A stretch of DNA of 64,000 nucleotides. Source: Fidelibacterota bacterium. GTDB taxonomy: Bacteria; Fidelibacterota; SORT01. The stretch covers positions 54,332-118,331 of the forward strand of contig JACZYG010000002.1 of the NCBI GenBank assembly GCA_022571215.1. The letters are read 5' to 3'. Of the stretch, positions 14,486-32,320 are shown in pieces; positions within the stretch are counted from its first letter, which is position 1; each line of letters starts with the position of its first letter. The notes beneath the pieces are model-generated. The model did not search any database, was not told the origin of the DNA, and saw only the letters and a program-made list of their open reading frames with translations. Position numbers and translations under genes: made by a program.

Positions 14486-14893
14486 TTGATTGGAAAATTG
14501 ACAGAAATTGAGCGTCTGGAACTGATAAAAGGACTTGAAGAACACAACACGGGCAAGTACTTTGCCTGTCACGAGACATTGGAAGATATTTGGATGGATA
14601 AAGGGGGAGATTTGAGGCGATTCCTACAGGGATTGATACATGTGGCGGTCGGTTTCTATCATCTGAGAGATTCAAACTACGTCGGCGCGTACCGTCAACT
14701 CGAAAAGGCTAATCGGAAGCTATCGGATTATGCCACTGTCGAGGTCGGTATAAACCTTCCCAAGTTGCTGGAATCAATAAAAGTCTGGTTGGAGAATTTG
14801 CGGTTTCTTCTTGACAATCCCGACTCCGACAAGGACTTCGGCATCTTCCCAAAATTTGATTATAACGCTGAAAAGATCTTAGCGCTGACATAA
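14486..14893 (+). CDS. DUF309 domain protein
   Basis: 135 aa; CHETLEDIW...LQGLIHVAVGFYHL matches the DUF309 signature; precedes the suf operon. Confidence 0.65.
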   Translation: MIGKLTEIERLELIKGLEEHNTGKYFACHETLEDIWMDKGGDLRRFLQGLIHVAVGFYHLRDSNYVGAYRQLEKANRKLSDYATVEVGINLPKLLESIKVWLENLRFLLDNPDSDKDFGIFPKFDYNAEKILALT

Positions 14894-24956: not shown

Positions 24957-25018
24957 CTCCTCCTCCCCCTTAAAAAGGAGGGGAATTAAAATGTGCGGTC
25001 AGGGCTTGCCCTAACCGC
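24957..25018 (+). repeat. Degenerate copy of a dispersed hairpin module (CCCCCT...AGGAGGGG hairpin followed by ATGTGCGGTCAGGG)
   Basis: Sequence similarity to the elements at 32154-32234 and 53895-53962. Confidence 0.45.
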
Positions 25019-25151
25019 CACATAATTTTATTGTCATTGCGCGAGGAGCAGTAAAGCTGCGACGCGACAATCTCAGAAATTAGTTTAGCACCAGAATTTT
25101 GGTGCAACCAGCCTGCATCAGTCGGGCAGGTTCTGCCCGCGCTCATAAAAT

Positions 25152-25198
25152 AACCACCCCTGCCTCTTCGAGGCTTCCCCTCCTTGAAAAGGAGGGGA
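25152..25198 (+). repeat. 47-nt double-hairpin module: AACCACCCC, hairpin GCCTC/GAGGC, hairpin TCCCCTCCT/AGGAGGGGA
   Basis: Same length and architecture as 32022-32068; the first stem differs by compensatory changes while the second stem is identical. Confidence 0.55.
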
Positions 25199-25343
25199 TG
25201 AAAAATCCTGTAAGCTACTCTGAATTCAAGATATAATATTAGTAGAATGACTTGCTGAATCAGCAATAAATCAGGTAATATTTCACTATGAAAAGACCCG
25301 TTTCAATATGAAACTTAAACGTAATACTGAATAATAATGCCGC

Positions 25344-25395: not shown

Positions 25396-26220
25396 ATGGA
25401 CACACTGCTAATTCTAAGAATAACGGTACCGCTCTTATATGCCGTTACGCTATATATTTATACGTTGGAATTTCGAGGTATACTCAAAGAACGTTCCGTA
25501 AAACCTACAATAGCCTTAATGATTTCTGTGGCGATCCATCTTGTCTTTTGGGTCGTGCTTTATTCTTCATCAGGCAAATACCCTATAGGTAGCCTTTTTG
25601 GAACGCTGACCACTTTTGTACTGCTTTTATCAATTATATATATGCTGATAGAATATGGAATGAATGACCGTTCCTTTGGTATATTTGTGCTGTCTCTTGT
25701 ATTACTCCTTCAAGTTGTGGCATCGATATTTATCAATCCTGAAGGAATTAGTTCTCCGCTATTAGAGGAAGTAATTTTCGAAATTCACGTTATATCGTTG
25801 ATTATATCGTATTCAGCTTTCGCTCTCGGAGCTATTGCGGCGGTCATGCATCTCCTTTTATCCAAAAAAATAAAACATCAGGAATTGGATATTGTTTACC
25901 ACAAACTCCCTACACTGCAATTTTTACGGCAGGTAGGTATTTTTTCTGTATACTTCGGATTTGTATTTTTGACGGCGGGCATAGCGCTCGGATTTTTTAA
26001 TGCTTCACAGGTCCCGGAGGCAGGCATATCGCTATCCGATCCGAAGATAGTCTCAGCTATTATTACATGGCTGATATACGGAATTTTCGTGCTGATACAT
26101 ATGTTGAAAAAATTAACAGCGAAATCAGCTATAAATCTATCGTTGATAGGATTTATCACAATTTTATTCACATTTTTCGTTGTGAATACTTTAATGGAAA
26201 CATTTCACCTCTTTCAATAG
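25396..26220 (+). CDS. Polytopic inner membrane protein (possibly cytochrome c assembly / HemX-like family; uncertain)
   Basis: 274 aa with about 8 hydrophobic helices; no WWD motif; family assignment is weak. Confidence 0.55.
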   Translation: MDTLLILRITVPLLYAVTLYIYTLEFRGILKERSVKPTIALMISVAIHLVFWVVLYSSSGKYPIGSLFGTLTTFVLLLSIIYMLIEYGMNDRSFGIFVLSLVLLLQVVASIFINPEGISSPLLEEVIFEIHVISLIISYSAFALGAIAAVMHLLLSKKIKHQELDIVYHKLPTLQFLRQVGIFSVYFGFVFLTAGIALGFFNASQVPEAGISLSDPKIVSAIITWLIYGIFVLIHMLKKLTAKSAINLSLIGFITILFTFFVVNTLMETFHLFQ

Positions 26221-26232
26221 GCCAATGATTCG

Positions 26233-28068
26233 TTGAAAATATCCGGAATCAAATACCGCTCTTCAGATAGTTCAGAATTCGACTCCATTCGTGAATTGAT
26301 CAGAGAAAAATCCGTTGAGTCAATTAATTTTGATTTTCAAGGTTATGAGCATCAGTATTGGGTTTCAAATGACAGAGAAAAGTCAATAAACCAAAGAGTT
26401 CAAAAGAGCATACCGATATTGGGTCATGAGGAATCCTTACAAAATATATTCAGAATTTGCTGCGGACTTTCGAACGAACAAATCGGCACAAAGAAGGGTT
26501 TTAAGAGTTTTGAATCTGCAATAATTTCGGGGAAGCAAAAGGACAGAGTAGGTCCTCTTTTTTCAAGGTTATATACCGATATTGAAGCTGTTCTGAGGAA
26601 TATTTACTCTTCAACGACATTGAGAACGGGTGTAATCGAAAGGTTTTCTGCCGCTGCGGAATTGTCGGTAAAAATATTTGGTGATTTGAACGATAAGTCA
26701 GCATTAGTGATCGGCGAAAGTTCATTTTTCAAAGAAGTGAAAGCAGCGTTAAAAGAAAGAGATATTGGATTCGTTGAGTCGTTAAGGAATAACAAGATTA
26801 GAGATGAGGAATTGTCCGCTTATGATATTCTTGTAGTTAAAGAAGAGACGACAGATAAAATAAATCAGATATACGAACTTGTTCCAAAAATGACCAGGTC
26901 AAATGAATCATCATTTCTTATACTTGATTTTGGATCGGCTGCAAACTCGCTCCATGAGCTGGGAAATATTTACAATGTTTTTTATACTCATGCTTCGTCC
27001 CTCGATTCGGTAATTTCACGGAATTTGAAATTGAGAAGCGACGCGATTCCTGAAGCGGAAAAAATTATCGAGCGTCGAGTAAAAGAATTTCTGAAATGGA
27101 GCGAGTCGGATAAATGGGATGTCTCTAAAAGCATCATCGCGCGTTCACATCAGATGCAAAAAGTCTTCGAGCTTATTTATAAGGTAGCCCCTTCGAATGC
27201 TATCGTTATCATATCGGGCGAAACGGGAACCGGAAAAGAGCTTGTTGCAAAGGCGATTCACAAGTCAGGTCAACGCGGAGATAAGCCTTTTATAGCCGTA
27301 AATTGCGGCGCAATACCGGAAAATTTACTCGAAAGCACACTTTTCGGTTATGTAAAAGGAGCATTTACCGGAGCTCACGAGGATAAAAAGGGTATTTTCC
27401 AAGCCGCGGACGGAGGCGTACTCTTCTTAGACGAAATTGCGGAATTACCGATGATGCTCCAGGTAAAACTTCTTCGAGCGTTGCAGGATAATGAGATCAC
27501 ACCGGTAGGGGGAAACAGGAGTAATAAAGTAAATGTAAGGATTCTTGCTGCAACGAATAAAAATTTAATGAAAGAGGTGATGGAGGGAAGATTCCGCGAG
27601 GATCTGTTTTATCGTCTGAACGTCGTGGAGATCGTCGTGCCTCCGCTCCGTGAAAGGGTTGATGATATACTGGCTTTAGCGAATCATTTTTTACTCGAAC
27701 ACTCTAATAGAACTCAGAAAGATAAATTCAGATTATCAGATTCTGCCGCTGAGCTGCTAACTCAATATCAATGGCCCGGAAACGTTCGGGAGCTTCAGAA
27801 CGTAATAGAACGAGCCGCTGTACTGTCTGATTCATCAACAATATTGCCAAGCGATCTTCCCGAAGGGGTCTTGGAGAACAGGGACCGTTCAATTTCAGTT
27901 GTTTCAGAAAAAGATATGTCGCTTGAGGAGATCGAAGAAGAGCACATCAGATTGATGCTGCGAAAAAACAGATATAATTACAATTCAGTGGCGGAAACGC
28001 TCGGAATCGGAAGAACGACCTTGTGGCGAAAGATGAAAAAGTATGGGATTGCTTCGGTTGACGAGTAA
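26233..28068 (+). CDS. Sigma-54-dependent transcriptional activator (enhancer-binding protein) with a non-REC N-terminal domain
   Basis: 611 aa; AAA+ core with Walker A GETGTGKE and the GAFTGA sigma-54 contact motif; C-terminal Fis-type HTH; ~300 aa N-terminal domain of unknown type. Confidence 0.85.
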   Translation: MKISGIKYRSSDSSEFDSIRELIREKSVESINFDFQGYEHQYWVSNDREKSINQRVQKSIPILGHEESLQNIFRICCGLSNEQIGTKKGFKSFESAIISGKQKDRVGPLFSRLYTDIEAVLRNIYSSTTLRTGVIERFSAAAELSVKIFGDLNDKSALVIGESSFFKEVKAALKERDIGFVESLRNNKIRDEELSAYDILVVKEETTDKINQIYELVPKMTRSNESSFLILDFGSAANSLHELGNIYNVFYTHASSLDSVISRNLKLRSDAIPEAEKIIERRVKEFLKWSESDKWDVSKSIIARSHQMQKVFELIYKVAPSNAIVIISGETGTGKELVAKAIHKSGQRGDKPFIAVNCGAIPENLLESTLFGYVKGAFTGAHEDKKGIFQAADGGVLFLDEIAELPMMLQVKLLRALQDNEITPVGGNRSNKVNVRILAATNKNLMKEVMEGRFREDLFYRLNVVEIVVPPLRERVDDILALANHFLLEHSNRTQKDKFRLSDSAAELLTQYQWPGNVRELQNVIERAAVLSDSSTILPSDLPEGVLENRDRSISVVSEKDMSLEEIEEEHIRLMLRKNRYNYNSVAETLGIGRTTLWRKMKKYGIASVDE

Positions 28069-28153: not shown

Positions 28154-29236
28154 ATGAATATGGATCAGTGGAAAACAATCAGAAGAACTTTCATCGGAAC
28201 AGATCATTTTCTTGCCGATAACGTCCTACTTATTCTCTTGTTTTTACTGATCGGCGGATGCGGTCAGAAAGAGGAAACCAACAATCCGGACGAATTACGG
28301 CTCGGATTTATGCCCGATTTCACTCACGCGCAAGCTTTTGTGGGTATTGAAAAGAAACAATATAAGCTCAACCTGAAAAAAATCGATTTTAAACCGGCGC
28401 TTTACTTGACCGGTTCTTCCATGATGAGGGCGATAGCTCAAAACGAATTAGACATGGCGTTCGTGGATCCACTGTCTGCAATAATCAGTCATTCACGTTC
28501 AGACAGAAATGTGATTCGGGTGATAGGGGGGGTAAGCAGCGGAGGAATACTTTTCGTGGCACAAAGAGATGTGCCGCCTGGACACCTGAATGAATTCAAA
28601 CAAAAAACTATTGCCATTCCCGAGATTAATGGCACACAACATCTTGCGATAAAGAATTATTTTTCCTCCGAAGGTATGAGTCGCTCCATGGAAAGAGGTG
28701 AAATTATATTTTCGCCGACAAACCGGGACGAGTTATTACTTGCGTTCTCAAGACATTCGCTGATAGGAGCGTGGTTCCCGGAACCCTGGGCATCGAAACT
28801 AATCGTCGAAGGGGGAGGATACACCTACATTAACGAAAGTTCGTTGTGGACGAAATCGATATATGCGTCAACGATAATCGTATGCAGGCTCGATTTCCTT
28901 CAAACATATCCGGAGGCTGTCGAGCGATTTCTGAAAGGACATATAGAAACTACATTGTGGATTCGTAATCATAAGGATGAATCGATAAGAATTCTTTCTG
29001 AAGGGATTGAAACACTGACCGGGGAAAATATTTCCCTGACGGTCGCAAATAGGGCTTTTCAAAATATTGTGGCTACATATGACCCGGTGAGACATTCTAT
29101 AATTAAGCTGGCGTCGAGGTCTCAGCGTTTCGGGCTAATTTCTGATATGAGAATTGACGATCTTTTTGAATTTACGCCGATAGACACTATCCTTAGTTAT
29201 AGATACTTGCCACCTATAAAAATGATAATAAATTAG
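28154..29236 (+). CDS. Periplasmic substrate-binding lipoprotein, NMT1/SsuA/TauA-like (nitrate/sulfonate/bicarbonate family)
   Basis: 360 aa; lipobox LIGGC; type 2 periplasmic binding fold sequence features; no adjacent permease or ATPase. Confidence 0.65.
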   Translation: MNMDQWKTIRRTFIGTDHFLADNVLLILLFLLIGGCGQKEETNNPDELRLGFMPDFTHAQAFVGIEKKQYKLNLKKIDFKPALYLTGSSMMRAIAQNELDMAFVDPLSAIISHSRSDRNVIRVIGGVSSGGILFVAQRDVPPGHLNEFKQKTIAIPEINGTQHLAIKNYFSSEGMSRSMERGEIIFSPTNRDELLLAFSRHSLIGAWFPEPWASKLIVEGGGYTYINESSLWTKSIYASTIIVCRLDFLQTYPEAVERFLKGHIETTLWIRNHKDESIRILSEGIETLTGENISLTVANRAFQNIVATYDPVRHSIIKLASRSQRFGLISDMRIDDLFEFTPIDTILSYRYLPPIKMIIN

Positions 29237-29381
29237 ACGGTAACAGCTGTAATAAATGCAGGTATTATGACATAATGACAGGATTGATTGTATTGAATAT
29301 ATGTATTGAGTTTCAGGGTCAGATTCAGTATATTTACTCTATGGTTAGATGTTGGGAGATTTGATATTAAATTTTACCTAT

Positions 29382-29397
29382 TGGCACAAATATTGCA
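29382..29397 (+). promoter_or_regulatory. Candidate sigma-54 (-24/-12) promoter TGGCAC-N5-TTGCA upstream of lon
   Basis: TGGCACaaataTTGCA with GG at 29383-29384 and GC at 29395-29396; about 46 nt upstream of the lon ATG. Confidence 0.5.
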
Positions 29398-29442
29398 AAA
29401 AATAATGATTGAAAACAACATTGTAACCAAGAGATAGATAAT

Positions 29443-31842
29443 ATGGAAGATTTTGAAAACGAACATATACCTGAAGTATTACCGATACTTCCGCTAAGAA
29501 ATACTGTACTCTTTCCTCAGCAGGTCATACCGATATCAATCGGAAGAGAAAAATCTGTAAGTCTGATTTCGAAAGTAAGTGAAACTAATAAATTGATAGG
29601 CGTAGTCGCTCAGCGTGACGGCTCGGTTGAGCATCCGGAGTCCACAGATTTATATGCCTGGGGAACGCTCGCAGCGGTGCTGAAGGTATTTGATATGCCT
29701 GACGGTAGTAAAAGCGCTATCATACAGGGTCTTCAAAGGATAAAATTGATAACGTATTTAGAGGAAGAGCCATATATCAAAGCGGCAGTGCAGCAAATTT
29801 CCGACGATGAAACGACAAGCGATCTTGAGATTGAGGCTATGGCTGTCAACGTAAGATCCGTTTTTCAGGATATTGTTGAGATTGCGCCATATCTGTCTAT
29901 GGAGCATACGTCCCTTCTGGCGAATATTGACGAACCGGGTAAACTTGTGGATAGGGCTATATCAGTTTTGAATATCCGCACTTCTGAAAAACAGATTGTT
30001 TTAGAAGAGGTGAGTATTCGGCGACGTCTCGAAGAATCAATAATTATTCTCAATAGAGAACTTCAAAGATTACAGTTAGGTGAAAAAATACAAACAGAAG
30101 TTCAGGGTGAAATAAACAAGACCCAGAGAGAATATTTTCTAAGGGAGCAGCTGAAGGCTATTAAAAAAGAGCTTGGTGAGGAGGACGATATTGCCCTCGA
30201 ATTAAGAGAATTGAAAGAGAAGATGGACGCCGCAAAACTAAGCGAAGAAGCATTGAAGGTAGCGGAAAAAGAACTTGACAGGCTAAACCGGATACCTCCT
30301 TCCTCTCCGGAATATACTGTTTCAAGGACATATCTCGATTGGCTTATAGATCTCCCCTGGAGCAAGAATACGGAAGACAATATGGATATAAAAGAAGCCG
30401 CGGCGGTTCTCGACGGTGATCATTACGGCCTCAAAAAGGTCAAAGAGCGGATTCTTGAATATCTTGCCGTTAGAAAACTTAAATCGGACATGAAAGGTCC
30501 TATACTCTGCTTTGTCGGTCCTCCCGGAACTGGAAAAACTTCCGTCGGTAAATCAATAGCCGAAGCGGTTGGAAGAAAATTCGTGAGGATATCACTTGGC
30601 GGAGTTCATGATGAGGCGGAGATAAGGGGTCATCGTAGAACCTACATCGGCGCCTTGCCGGGTCGGATTATACAGGGACTTAAAAAAGCCGGTTCGAATA
30701 ATCCTATATTCATGCTGGACGAGATAGACAAGGTCGGCAAAGATTTTCGCGGGGATCCCTCCTCTGCGCTGCTTGAGGTTCTTGACCCGGAACAGAACGA
30801 CACTTTTTCCGATCATTATTTGGAGGTGGAGTTCGATCTCTCGAAGGTAATGTTCATAGCAACCGCGAATATGGTTGATACCATTCCTCCCGCATTGAGG
30901 GACAGGATGGAGGTAATCGAATTTTCGGGATATATCGAAGAAGAAAAAACTCAGATAGCTCGAAAATTCCTCATTCCGAAACAGCTTGCGGAGCATGGTC
31001 TCAGTGACAGAAAACTCGAATTTGAAGAGTCCGGACTAACAGAGATAGTGCATTCTTATACCCGTGAGTCGGGCGTTAGAAATCTCGAAAGACAATTGGC
31101 GAATGTATCACGCAGAGTCGCGAAAGAAATTGTCGAAGGAAACAAAAAGAAAAAGAGAGTGACCAAGGCAAATGTCGCCGATTATCTCGGGCCTGTCAAA
31201 TTTTTCTCCGATGTTGCCGAACGGACTAAAAAACCGGGTATCGCAACCGGTTTAGCATATACGCCTTCAGGAGGTGATATCTTGTTTATCGAGGCTACAT
31301 CAATGCCCGGAAAGGGAAAACTCACCCTGACCGGTCAACTTGGGGATGTAATGAAAGAGTCCGCCGAAGCCGCGAAGTCCTTCATACGTTCGCAAGCGGA
31401 AGAACTCGGAATTGATCCTAAATTTAATGAAAATACGGATATTCACATACACGTACCCGCGGGAGCAATTCCGAAAGACGGTCCATCGGCGGGCGTAACG
31501 ATGCTTTCCGCGATGGTTTCTCTTTTAACAGGCAGGCGTTTGAAGCTTGATATCGCTATGACTGGTGAGATAACGCTTAGAGGCGCTGTTCTCCCAGTTG
31601 GGGGTATACGGGAAAAAGTTCTCGCTGCTCATCGCGCCGGTATCAAAATGATAATCTTACCTGAGAAGAATAAAAAAGATTTAGAAGAGATACCGAAAAA
31701 AACGCTTCGGGGAATGAAATTCCAATTCGCCTCGGAGATGCTCCAGGTTATAGACCTCGCATTGGTGAAAGCTCCGGGCAGGCATTCTCTTCAGAGCAGT
31801 CCGGTAAAAGGGGCGACCCATATCCAATCCGGGAGAGCGTAA
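29443..31842 (+). CDS. lon: ATP-dependent Lon protease
   Basis: 799 aa; Lon N-terminal domain, AAA+ Walker A GPPGTGKTS, protease domain with catalytic Ser in PKDGPSAG. Confidence 0.95.
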   Translation: MEDFENEHIPEVLPILPLRNTVLFPQQVIPISIGREKSVSLISKVSETNKLIGVVAQRDGSVEHPESTDLYAWGTLAAVLKVFDMPDGSKSAIIQGLQRIKLITYLEEEPYIKAAVQQISDDETTSDLEIEAMAVNVRSVFQDIVEIAPYLSMEHTSLLANIDEPGKLVDRAISVLNIRTSEKQIVLEEVSIRRRLEESIIILNRELQRLQLGEKIQTEVQGEINKTQREYFLREQLKAIKKELGEEDDIALELRELKEKMDAAKLSEEALKVAEKELDRLNRIPPSSPEYTVSRTYLDWLIDLPWSKNTEDNMDIKEAAAVLDGDHYGLKKVKERILEYLAVRKLKSDMKGPILCFVGPPGTGKTSVGKSIAEAVGRKFVRISLGGVHDEAEIRGHRRTYIGALPGRIIQGLKKAGSNNPIFMLDEIDKVGKDFRGDPSSALLEVLDPEQNDTFSDHYLEVEFDLSKVMFIATANMVDTIPPALRDRMEVIEFSGYIEEEKTQIARKFLIPKQLAEHGLSDRKLEFEESGLTEIVHSYTRESGVRNLERQLANVSRRVAKEIVEGNKKKKRVTKANVADYLGPVKFFSDVAERTKKPGIATGLAYTPSGGDILFIEATSMPGKGKLTLTGQLGDVMKESAEAAKSFIRSQAEELGIDPKFNENTDIHIHVPAGAIPKDGPSAGVTMLSAMVSLLTGRRLKLDIAMTGEITLRGAVLPVGGIREKVLAAHRAGIKMIILPEKNKKDLEEIPKKTLRGMKFQFASEMLQVIDLALVKAPGRHSLQSSPVKGATHIQSGRA

Positions 31843-31930
31843 AAGAGTATTATGGAGCGCTCCGAAAGTATTACCGTTGTATAATCTGACTTTAAGATAG
31901 ATATTAAACGGTATCTACCAGCTTGTAAAA

Positions 31931-31960
31931 AACCCTCAATTTTAGTTGGGGGTTTTTCTT
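31931..31960 (+). terminator. Rho-independent terminator downstream of lon
   Basis: AACCCTCAA-ttttag-TTGGGGGTT stem (9 bp with one G-U pair in RNA) followed by TTTCTT. Confidence 0.6.
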
Positions 31961-32021
31961 GATATCACGGTTCATTCCGCTGGAGATTCCCGCCGAACAG
32001 ACTCTGACGGCATTTCAATTC

Positions 32022-32068
32022 AACCACCCCTCCGCTTTCAGCGGCGTCCCCTCCTTGTTAGGAGGGGA
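32022..32068 (+). repeat. 47-nt double-hairpin module: AACCACCCC, hairpin CCGCT/AGCGG, hairpin TCCCCTCCT/AGGAGGGGA
   Basis: Paralogue of 25152-25198 with covarying first stem. Confidence 0.55.
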
Positions 32069-32153
32069 TATCTCAAGGAGGCAATACGTGGCGAGGTCTA
32101 TTTAAAGTCCCGTGGATTAAGGAGAATGCGGATAACTGATTTCTAACTCTCGA

Positions 32154-32234
32154 CACACCCCGCCCTGCGGGCACCCCTCTTTTTAGAGGGGAACTTACAT
32201 CCCATCTTCGATGGGATATGTGCGAGTCAGGATT
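32154..32234 (+). repeat. Composite repeat: degenerate double-hairpin module (GCCC/GGGC and CCCCTCT/AGAGGGG) plus ATCCCATC/GATGGGAT hairpin plus conserved TGTGCGAGTCAGGATT box
   Basis: The 16-nt box at 32219-32234 is identical to 53931-53946; the module architecture matches the other copies. Confidence 0.5.
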
Positions 32235-32320
32235 TACCCGCTTGGCTTCAGCCGGACAGACTCTGACGGAACGAAACCTTAAAACCATTAAAATGGTTCA
32301 AAATATTATACTTCTTTGGA

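Follow-up and report, generated by a model that had tools for sequence, protein, structure and literature searches.

A Candidate Sigma-54 Promoter Upstream of lon Conserved in Most Marinimicrobia (Fidelibacterota) Lineages

The lon Gene and Its Flanking DNA

The stretch of DNA analyzed here (64,000 nucleotides of a Fidelibacterota contig, hereafter the window, in which position 1 is the first letter) carries a lon gene on the forward strand (29443..31842). Its 799-aa product is a LonA protease with the Pfam domains LON_substr_bdg, AAA, Lon_lid, and Lon_C, and it scores 1000 bits against NCBIfam TIGR00763 (cutoff 608). A protein identical to this Lon is labelled as endopeptidase La of Candidatus Marinimicrobia/Neomarinimicrobiota, and contigs encoding the identical protein were found in hydrothermal metagenome assemblies. 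Members of the Marinimicrobia (SAR406, now Fidelibacterota) abound in deep-ocean waters and oxygen-minimum zones, and hardly any has been brought into culture. The phylum has since been named Fidelibacterota and counts one cultured species (PMC11652737). Upstream of lon lie a CcsB/HemX-like gene (25396-26220), directly followed by the gene for a 611-aa sigma-54 enhancer-binding protein (26233..28068, forward strand), and then a gene for an SsuA/NMT1-type substrate-binding protein (28154-29236), which stands between the enhancer-binding protein gene and lon.

On the downstream side, a hairpin between an A-run and a U-run (31928..31957, forward strand) has a predicted folding energy of -15.2 kcal/mol (z = -3.4), and none of 200 shuffled sequences folded as well. 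A simple terminator scan gave no flag at 31928-31957; from its fold and position, the hairpin is a likely intrinsic terminator, and lon is thus likely to be monocistronic. Rfam and tRNA scans of the window returned no match. Repeated GC-rich hairpins of the form CCCCTCC..GGAGGGG occupy two intergenic stretches of the window (24960-25210 and 31990-32270), and a 19-nt direct repeat, GCCGRACAGACTCTGACGG, occurs at 31992 and 32251; together, the hairpins and the GCCGRACAGACTCTGACGG repeat look like dispersed REP-like elements. In a close relative (locus L165, 6739-8571), three genes, including one of the HEPN_AbiU2-like type, are found downstream of lon, where the window has the REP-like noncoding DNA.

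The 206-nt gap between the end of the substrate-binding-protein gene (29236) and the lon ATG (29443) contains the sequence TGGCACaaataTTGCA (29382..29397, forward strand), a candidate sigma-54 promoter box made of TGGCAC (29382-29387), the spacer AAATA (29388-29392), and TTGCA (29393-29397). It matches every specified position of TGGCAC-N5-TTGCW, and its GG (29383-84) and GC (29395-96) doublets show the exact GG-N10-GC spacing. The box has the same orientation as lon and ends 45 nt before the ATG, which agrees with the first-pass annotation of this DNA, where a near-consensus box with GG-N10-GC spacing had been placed about 46 nt from lon. With the C of the GC doublet taken as -12, the standard geometry of sigma-54 promoters would put the transcription start at about 29408 (29406..29410, forward strand), with a predicted leader of about 35 nt. 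The perfect motif TGGCAC-N5-TTGC is found once in the 64-kb window, both strands included, against an expectation of 0.05, and 5 of 100 shuffled windows contained at least one perfect match. With one mismatch permitted, three matches were found for 2.29 expected; this count is close to expectation, so the perfect lon site alone stands out in the window. The lon box is also the best match in the window (17.6 bits) to a 16-nt sigma-54 weight matrix, which is an approximation derived from published base frequencies. The remaining matches of at least 10 bits fall inside long ORFs, apart from one near 14551, which borders an ORF start that is itself uncertain. The lon box is the sole strong sigma-54 match in intergenic DNA of the window. 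By eye, no CIRCE, HAIR, or CtsR-type operator was seen in the lon intergenic region. A TTGGCA hexamer that could be read as a sigma-70 -35 element, with AATGAT as its -10, was rejected because this -10 is not kept in close relatives.

The same gap contains, upstream of the sigma-54 box, a sigma-70-like promoter candidate, TTGAGT-N17-TATATT (P1; 29306..29334, forward strand), which matches the consensus at 9 of 12 positions. Its TTGA (29306-29309) and TATATT (29329-29334), with the 17-nt spacer, are invariant in five of five close relatives, in otherwise variable surrounding DNA. Canonical sigma-70 promoters are found in the same genome, with TTGACA-N17-TATATT before the ccsB-like operon and a perfect TTGACA-N17-TATAAT before a tRNA gene just beyond the window (L173, 560-600). 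The conservation of P1 in close relatives makes tandem promoters probable for lon: Besides the sigma-54 promoter, a sigma-70-type promoter, whose function is deduced from its sequence, probably drives lon in the window's lineage, and at the sequence level it is located upstream of the sigma-54 box of the same gene.

Conservation of the Box and of an Upstream Palindrome

We fetched 160 lon loci from species-representative genomes and metagenomes and added close relatives through exact-protein look-ups (L165, L166, and L167/L168, whose Lon proteins are 95%, 86%, and 82% identical to that of the window, respectively, as well as L174 and L175). For each locus, the best matrix match was taken in the 350 nt upstream of a conserved "PLR" anchor at the N-terminus of Lon, a procedure in which picking the best match inflates the apparent conservation. 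The first-pass annotation had proposed looking for the motif upstream of lon in related genomes, and it is indeed there: A box of at least 10 bits was found on the lon strand in 25 of the 32 loci of the window's Lon clade (Marinimicrobia/Fidelibacterota) versus 6 of 129 loci from other phyla (Fisher p = 1.4e-17, a value that overstates the independence of the data because many loci are phylogenetically related). As controls, 3 reverse-strand regions and about 9 coding-sequence regions reached 10 bits among about 160 loci. In a quick neighbor-joining tree of Lon, all high-scoring, box-bearing loci grouped with the window into a single clade.

Within this clade, the boxes are located mostly 80-110 nt from the PLR anchor, and the distance from the start of the box to the predicted start codon ranges from 37 to 70 nt in relatives. 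The genes upstream differ among lineages and the flanks of the box cannot be aligned. In L175, which represents a widespread marine lineage, TGGCACacttgTTGCC is found 31 nt before the ATG. Among 23 nonredundant sites, GG and TTG do not vary, which is in part due to the matrix used for picking sites, as it favors both; position -22 is A in 22 of 23 sites, and the spacer varies freely. This pattern of conservation is what recognition by sigma-54 would predict. The base at -12 is C in 12 sites, A in 7, and T in 4; C at this position is normally very well conserved in sigma-54 promoters. TTGA or TTGT takes the place of TTGC at -12 in L002, L003, L004, L008, L011, L088, L090, L091, L094, L095, L096, and L100. 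The box is absent from L007 and from an in-clade subgroup formed by L085-L089 and L174, the last being the one named Fidelibacterota assembly that was checked; in this subclade lon directly follows, after a short gap, a squalene-hopene-cyclase-like gene. Such a distribution implies, as far as these loci allow one to judge, secondary loss or a replacement of the control of lon in L007 and in the L085-L089/L174 subgroup.

These losses within the clade, together with the occurrence of a perfect match in 5% of the shuffled windows, could be taken to mean that the box is nonfunctional, either a chance match or a decaying relic, and that all lon expression comes from the sigma-70-like promoter (29306-29334). 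Several features of the alignments make this extremely improbable. In close relatives (Lon 82-95% identical), the box is invariant in an intergenic region whose overall identity is 68-72%; it is kept at the same place in lineages whose Lon proteins are only 60-66% identical and whose upstream genes are different; and the copy in the window is the top-scoring copy of all loci, or nearly so.

A second element conserved upstream of lon is a 13-bp imperfect palindrome, TGACATAATGACA (29268..29280), included in a conserved block (about 29259-29282). The recurring 13-mer was first seen when distant loci were aligned on the box. In an alignment of the region between the substrate-binding-protein gene and lon, comprising the window and L165-L168 (mean identity 68-72%), three islands are invariant, namely the palindrome block, the sigma-70-like TTGA/TATATT, and the sigma-54 box, and L167 carries a perfect palindrome, TGCCATTATGGCA. 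Gibbs sampling of 20 nonredundant lon upstream regions (-150 to -5) recovered the palindrome de novo, with 11.7 bits versus a mean of 7.4 and a maximum of 7.8 in 20 shuffled sets. The motif has the form TG[C/A]CA-N3/4-TG[G]CA (TGCCA-N3-TGGCA type; e.g., TGCCATTTTGGCA, TGACATTTTGTCA, and TGCCATTATTGCA). In 11 of 20 loci, the distance from its start to the box is 55-57 nt, and other loci have offsets of 45/46 or 66 nt, which differ by one turn of the helix; the window's lineage has it 103-114 nt from the box and out of helical phase with the other lineages. From the center of the palindrome to the predicted transcription start, the distance is about 76 nt in most lineages and about 134 nt in that of the window. 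In the sampled Marinimicrobia DNA, the palindrome with at most one mismatch was found upstream of a strong sigma-54 box in lon upstream regions only. Within the window itself, it is not over-represented (6 matches vs. 3.95 expected), so the support for it comes entirely from its conservation across species.

The placement and phasing of the palindrome are as expected near a sigma-54 promoter, from which we infer that it is a candidate activator-binding site (UAS). In the window, it ends at 29280 and the -35 element of P1 starts at 29306, so that the two do not overlap and are 26 nt apart; being out of phase in this lineage and 26 nt upstream of the -35, it could act there on the sigma-70-like promoter instead.

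The composition of the palindrome also bears on the nature of the factor that occupies the box. Its half-sites, TGGCA and TTGCA, are the same pentamers as the -24 and -12 elements, C at -12 is poorly kept among the lon boxes, and the window's lineage has a conserved sigma-70-like promoter. One might thus suppose that the box is bound by a protein other than sigma-54, for example the factor that recognizes the palindrome, and that lon is expressed only from sigma-70-type promoters. We find this very unlikely. The box fits the sigma-54 consensus at 11 specified positions, and from GG to G the spacing does not vary between lineages. The box is built of two elements in direct repeat, 11 nt apart, and the palindrome of half-sites inverted around a gap of 3-4 nt, so one dimeric factor is not expected on both. 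Moreover, no sigma-70-like promoter was seen by eye between palindrome and box outside the window's lineage, and the alternative TTGGCA/AATGAT pair is not conserved. The data thus support the reading of the box at 29382-29397 as a functional sigma-54 (RpoN) promoter for lon, and since the box is kept across most of the phylum and is accompanied by a second conserved element, this promoter is almost certainly real, as far as sequence comparison can tell.

The Neighboring Enhancer-Binding Protein

The first-pass annotation had also pointed to a sigma-54 enhancer-binding protein encoded 1.3 kb upstream, with the implication that this protein acts on lon. The protein is genuine: It has the Pfam domains Sigma54_activat, AAA_lid_14, and HTH_8, and its GAFTGA (GYVKGAFTGA), Walker A (GETGTGKE), and Walker B (LFLDEI) motifs are intact; the end of its gene is 1314 nt from the box. 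It has no receiver domain. Instead, its N-terminal 300 residues match glutamyl-tRNA reductase (TIGR01035 hemA), with an E-value of 3e-19 and a score far below the family cutoff. Homologs of this HemA-like enhancer-binding protein carry PF05201/PF01488. The putative NADPH-binding loop, placed by resemblance and inspected by eye, reads ALVIGESSFF and shows no glycine motif. Full-length homologs were found in Marinimicrobia, Calditrichota, and KSB1. The protein could be a haem- or tetrapyrrole-sensing activator; we found no paper combining a HemA-like domain with a sigma-54 activator and HemX/CcsB terms.

That this complete activator, with its GAFTGA, Walker A/B, and HTH_8 features, activates the lon promoter is suggested by two further observations: The lon box is the sole convincing sigma-54 promoter in the 64-kb window, and no more than about 3-4 kb separate the activator gene from lon in all of the family-level clade to which the window belongs. 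The comparison of more distant loci argues against such a link. No homolog of the activator was found within 4-5 kb of lon in the other box-bearing Marinimicrobia loci, and tblastn searches with the activator, its N-terminal domain, and the substrate-binding protein against 164 related loci detected no ortholog near lon, the only matches being generic AAA+ ones in four loci of other phyla. In the close clade, too, insertions of unrelated genes (an ECF sigma/anti-sigma pair, DUF6249, RsgA, and thioredoxin-like genes) separate the activator gene from lon. The invariant partner of the activator is rather the CcsB/HemX-like gene, which it directly follows in three of three arrangements (window, L168-L170, and L171), and this pairing is kept in Calditrichota (L171), where lon is not nearby.

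The ccsB-like/activator unit has palindromes of its own, two perfect TTTCA-N3-TGAAA copies 20 bp apart (25281-25293 and 25301-25313) on its upstream side; the same pair occurs in L168 (7050-7082), and 0.23 such palindromes are expected per window. Their half-site is unlike that of the lon palindrome. In L168, a divergent sigma-54 box, TGGCACGCTATTTGTC (6958-6943), precedes a small CarboxypepD_reg gene, and the pair is found on the upstream side of this box, at a distance of about 95-125 nt. Given the lack of a homolog near lon in distant loci and the genes inserted in the close clade, we consider unlikely the link implied by the first-pass annotation, namely that the neighboring enhancer-binding protein is the activator of the lon promoter. 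As side observations, the window apparently has neither a divergent sigma-54 box nor a CarboxypepD_reg gene of the kind seen in L168, and the ECF sigma/anti-sigma/DUF6249 cassette lies between the activator and substrate-binding-protein genes in L165 (842-2522) and L166 (246-1914).

A Model for lon Control, Its Precedents, and Sigma-54 in the Rest of the Genome

The explanation that we favor, with a probability of about 0.75 for the whole of it, combines a sigma-54 promoter for lon, the palindrome as the site of its activator, and a sigma-70-type basal promoter. The sigma-54 holoenzyme would sit on the -24/-12 elements (29382-29397) as a closed complex, and an AAA+ enhancer-binding protein bound upstream, at the 13-bp palindrome TG[C/A]CA-N3-TG[G/T]CA (29268-29280 in the window), would hydrolyze ATP and thereby open the promoter; transcription would start near 29408, with its leader of about 35 nt, only on the action of this activator. 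The sigma-70-type promoter (29306-29334) would probably provide basal lon expression in the window's lineage and the sigma-54 promoter a signal-dependent induction, and the lon transcript would probably end at the hairpin at 31928-31957. That lon depends on sigma-54, that the palindrome serves an activator, and where the transcripts begin are all deduced from sequence. The best-supported part of the scenario is the sigma-54 promoter of lon itself, which would have been inherited from an early Marinimicrobia/Fidelibacterota ancestor.

The closest precedent comes from Myxococcus, which has a second, housekeeping lon gene, lonV. According to the summary given in PMC9109919, which cites Ueki and Inouye 2002, lonD of Myxococcus xanthus is directly regulated by the NtrC-like HsfA; in the same account, the HsfB/HsfA phosphorelay activates lonD (bsgA), which is a heat-shock lon. 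As far as this account goes, Myxococcus lonD and the lon gene of the window would have in common that control lies with an activator of the NtrC family and sigma-54 type, and not with a heat-shock sigma factor. By analogy with the HsfBA-lonD system, heat or proteotoxic stress is our leading guess for the inducing signal. The two cases differ in several respects. They belong to different phyla, Myxococcota and the FCB-group Marinimicrobia; a system of the HsfBA type needs a response regulator that has a receiver domain and takes its input from a histidine kinase, whereas the protein encoded next to lon in the window has a HemA-like N-terminus and no receiver domain; and the candidate activator site, TGCCA-N3-TGGCA, is defined only in the present work, from the Marinimicrobia loci. 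Searches of the literature on sigma-54, lon, and heat shock gave no further direct precedent beyond M. xanthus lonD. A paper on a Desulfovibrio response regulator was rejected as a precedent because it is about a Lon-domain regulator, not about a lon promoter. The wiring had been described as notable in the first-pass annotation, against the more usual sigma-70 or heat-shock control of lon; its sigma-54 part is supported, whereas the arrangement is not without precedent, given M. xanthus lonD/HsfA, and a sigma-70-type promoter is probable as well.

In proteobacteria, lon is usually controlled from sigma-32 promoters. A study of delta-proteobacteria gives, as predictions for lon, only promoters of this type, as in the clpP-clpX-lon arrangement (PMC545781). 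The gene is the same in the window and so, probably, is the need for stress-responsive proteolysis; the lon gene of the window is likely monocistronic with a -24/-12 promoter, and no sigma-32-type arrangement was seen. A different tie to heat shock is found in three loci of other phyla (L012, L099, and L101), in which an hsp20-type gene is located directly upstream of lon.

The layout of the lon upstream region also resembles that of glnA in Escherichia coli (glnAp1/glnAp2). In both, a sigma-70 promoter is located about 70-115 bp upstream of a sigma-54 promoter, activator sites (candidate ones in the case of lon) are found further upstream, and the combination provides, or in lon would provide, basal and inducible expression. 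At E. coli glnA, NtrC represses the sigma-70 promoter from sites that overlap it, unlike the palindrome of the window, which ends 26 nt upstream of the -35 and does not overlap it. Only in the close lineage of the window did we see the two promoters in tandem. Other sigma-54 stress promoters drive genes of protein quality control or envelope stress in E. coli, such as pspA (activated by PspF) and ibpB; these are different targets and their regulatory regions are not homologous to that of lon, so that the comparison is one of analogy only.

The outcome of this work is a phylum-wide regulatory prediction for lon, which covers its promoter, the candidate site of its activator, and the position where transcription is expected to start. 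The control of lon by sigma-54, known in Myxococcus, would now extend to a second, unrelated phylum. What is new is this sigma-54-lon wiring in another phylum together with the candidate activator site, the kind of wiring being already known, and the finding leaves unchanged the understanding of how sigma-54 or Lon work. Our literature searches found no paper covering both Marinimicrobia and sigma-54.

The use of sigma-54 in this genome is indicated by the GAFTGA-bearing enhancer-binding protein and, as described below, by a further consensus-grade box with a palindrome of its own, and enhancer-binding proteins with an intact GAFTGA are encoded in other Marinimicrobia genomes too. No RpoN-box peptide was found in the window or in the fetched Marinimicrobia loci, which represent a small fraction of a genome. 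One could imagine that Marinimicrobia run protein quality control through sigma-54 instead of a sigma-32-type factor, with a dedicated activator at TGCCA-N3-TGGCA, lon as the core target, and other chaperone or protease genes sharing the module. We regard this extension as rather doubtful. The DNA covered contained no further gene of this kind in which to look for the module: Motif scans of six-frame translations for DnaK, GroEL, Clp, HtpG, and FtsH found none in the window or the Marinimicrobia loci, and no chaperone gene turned up in the flanking 10 kb on either side of the window. To the right of the window, at a distance of about 9 kb (L173, 845-995), the same genome has another intergenic sigma-54 box of consensus grade, TGGCACTAAATTTGCC (16.3 bits); about 160 nt separate this box from a 135-aa lipoprotein-like ORF downstream, and a palindrome of another kind, TGACCA-N6-TGGTCA, is located about 125 nt upstream of the box. 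The same region encodes a short, 289-aa RpoD-like sigma factor (L173, 4505-5374), whose best matches are RpoD models, all below cutoff, and whose short length is reminiscent of the Bacteroidota primary sigma factor.
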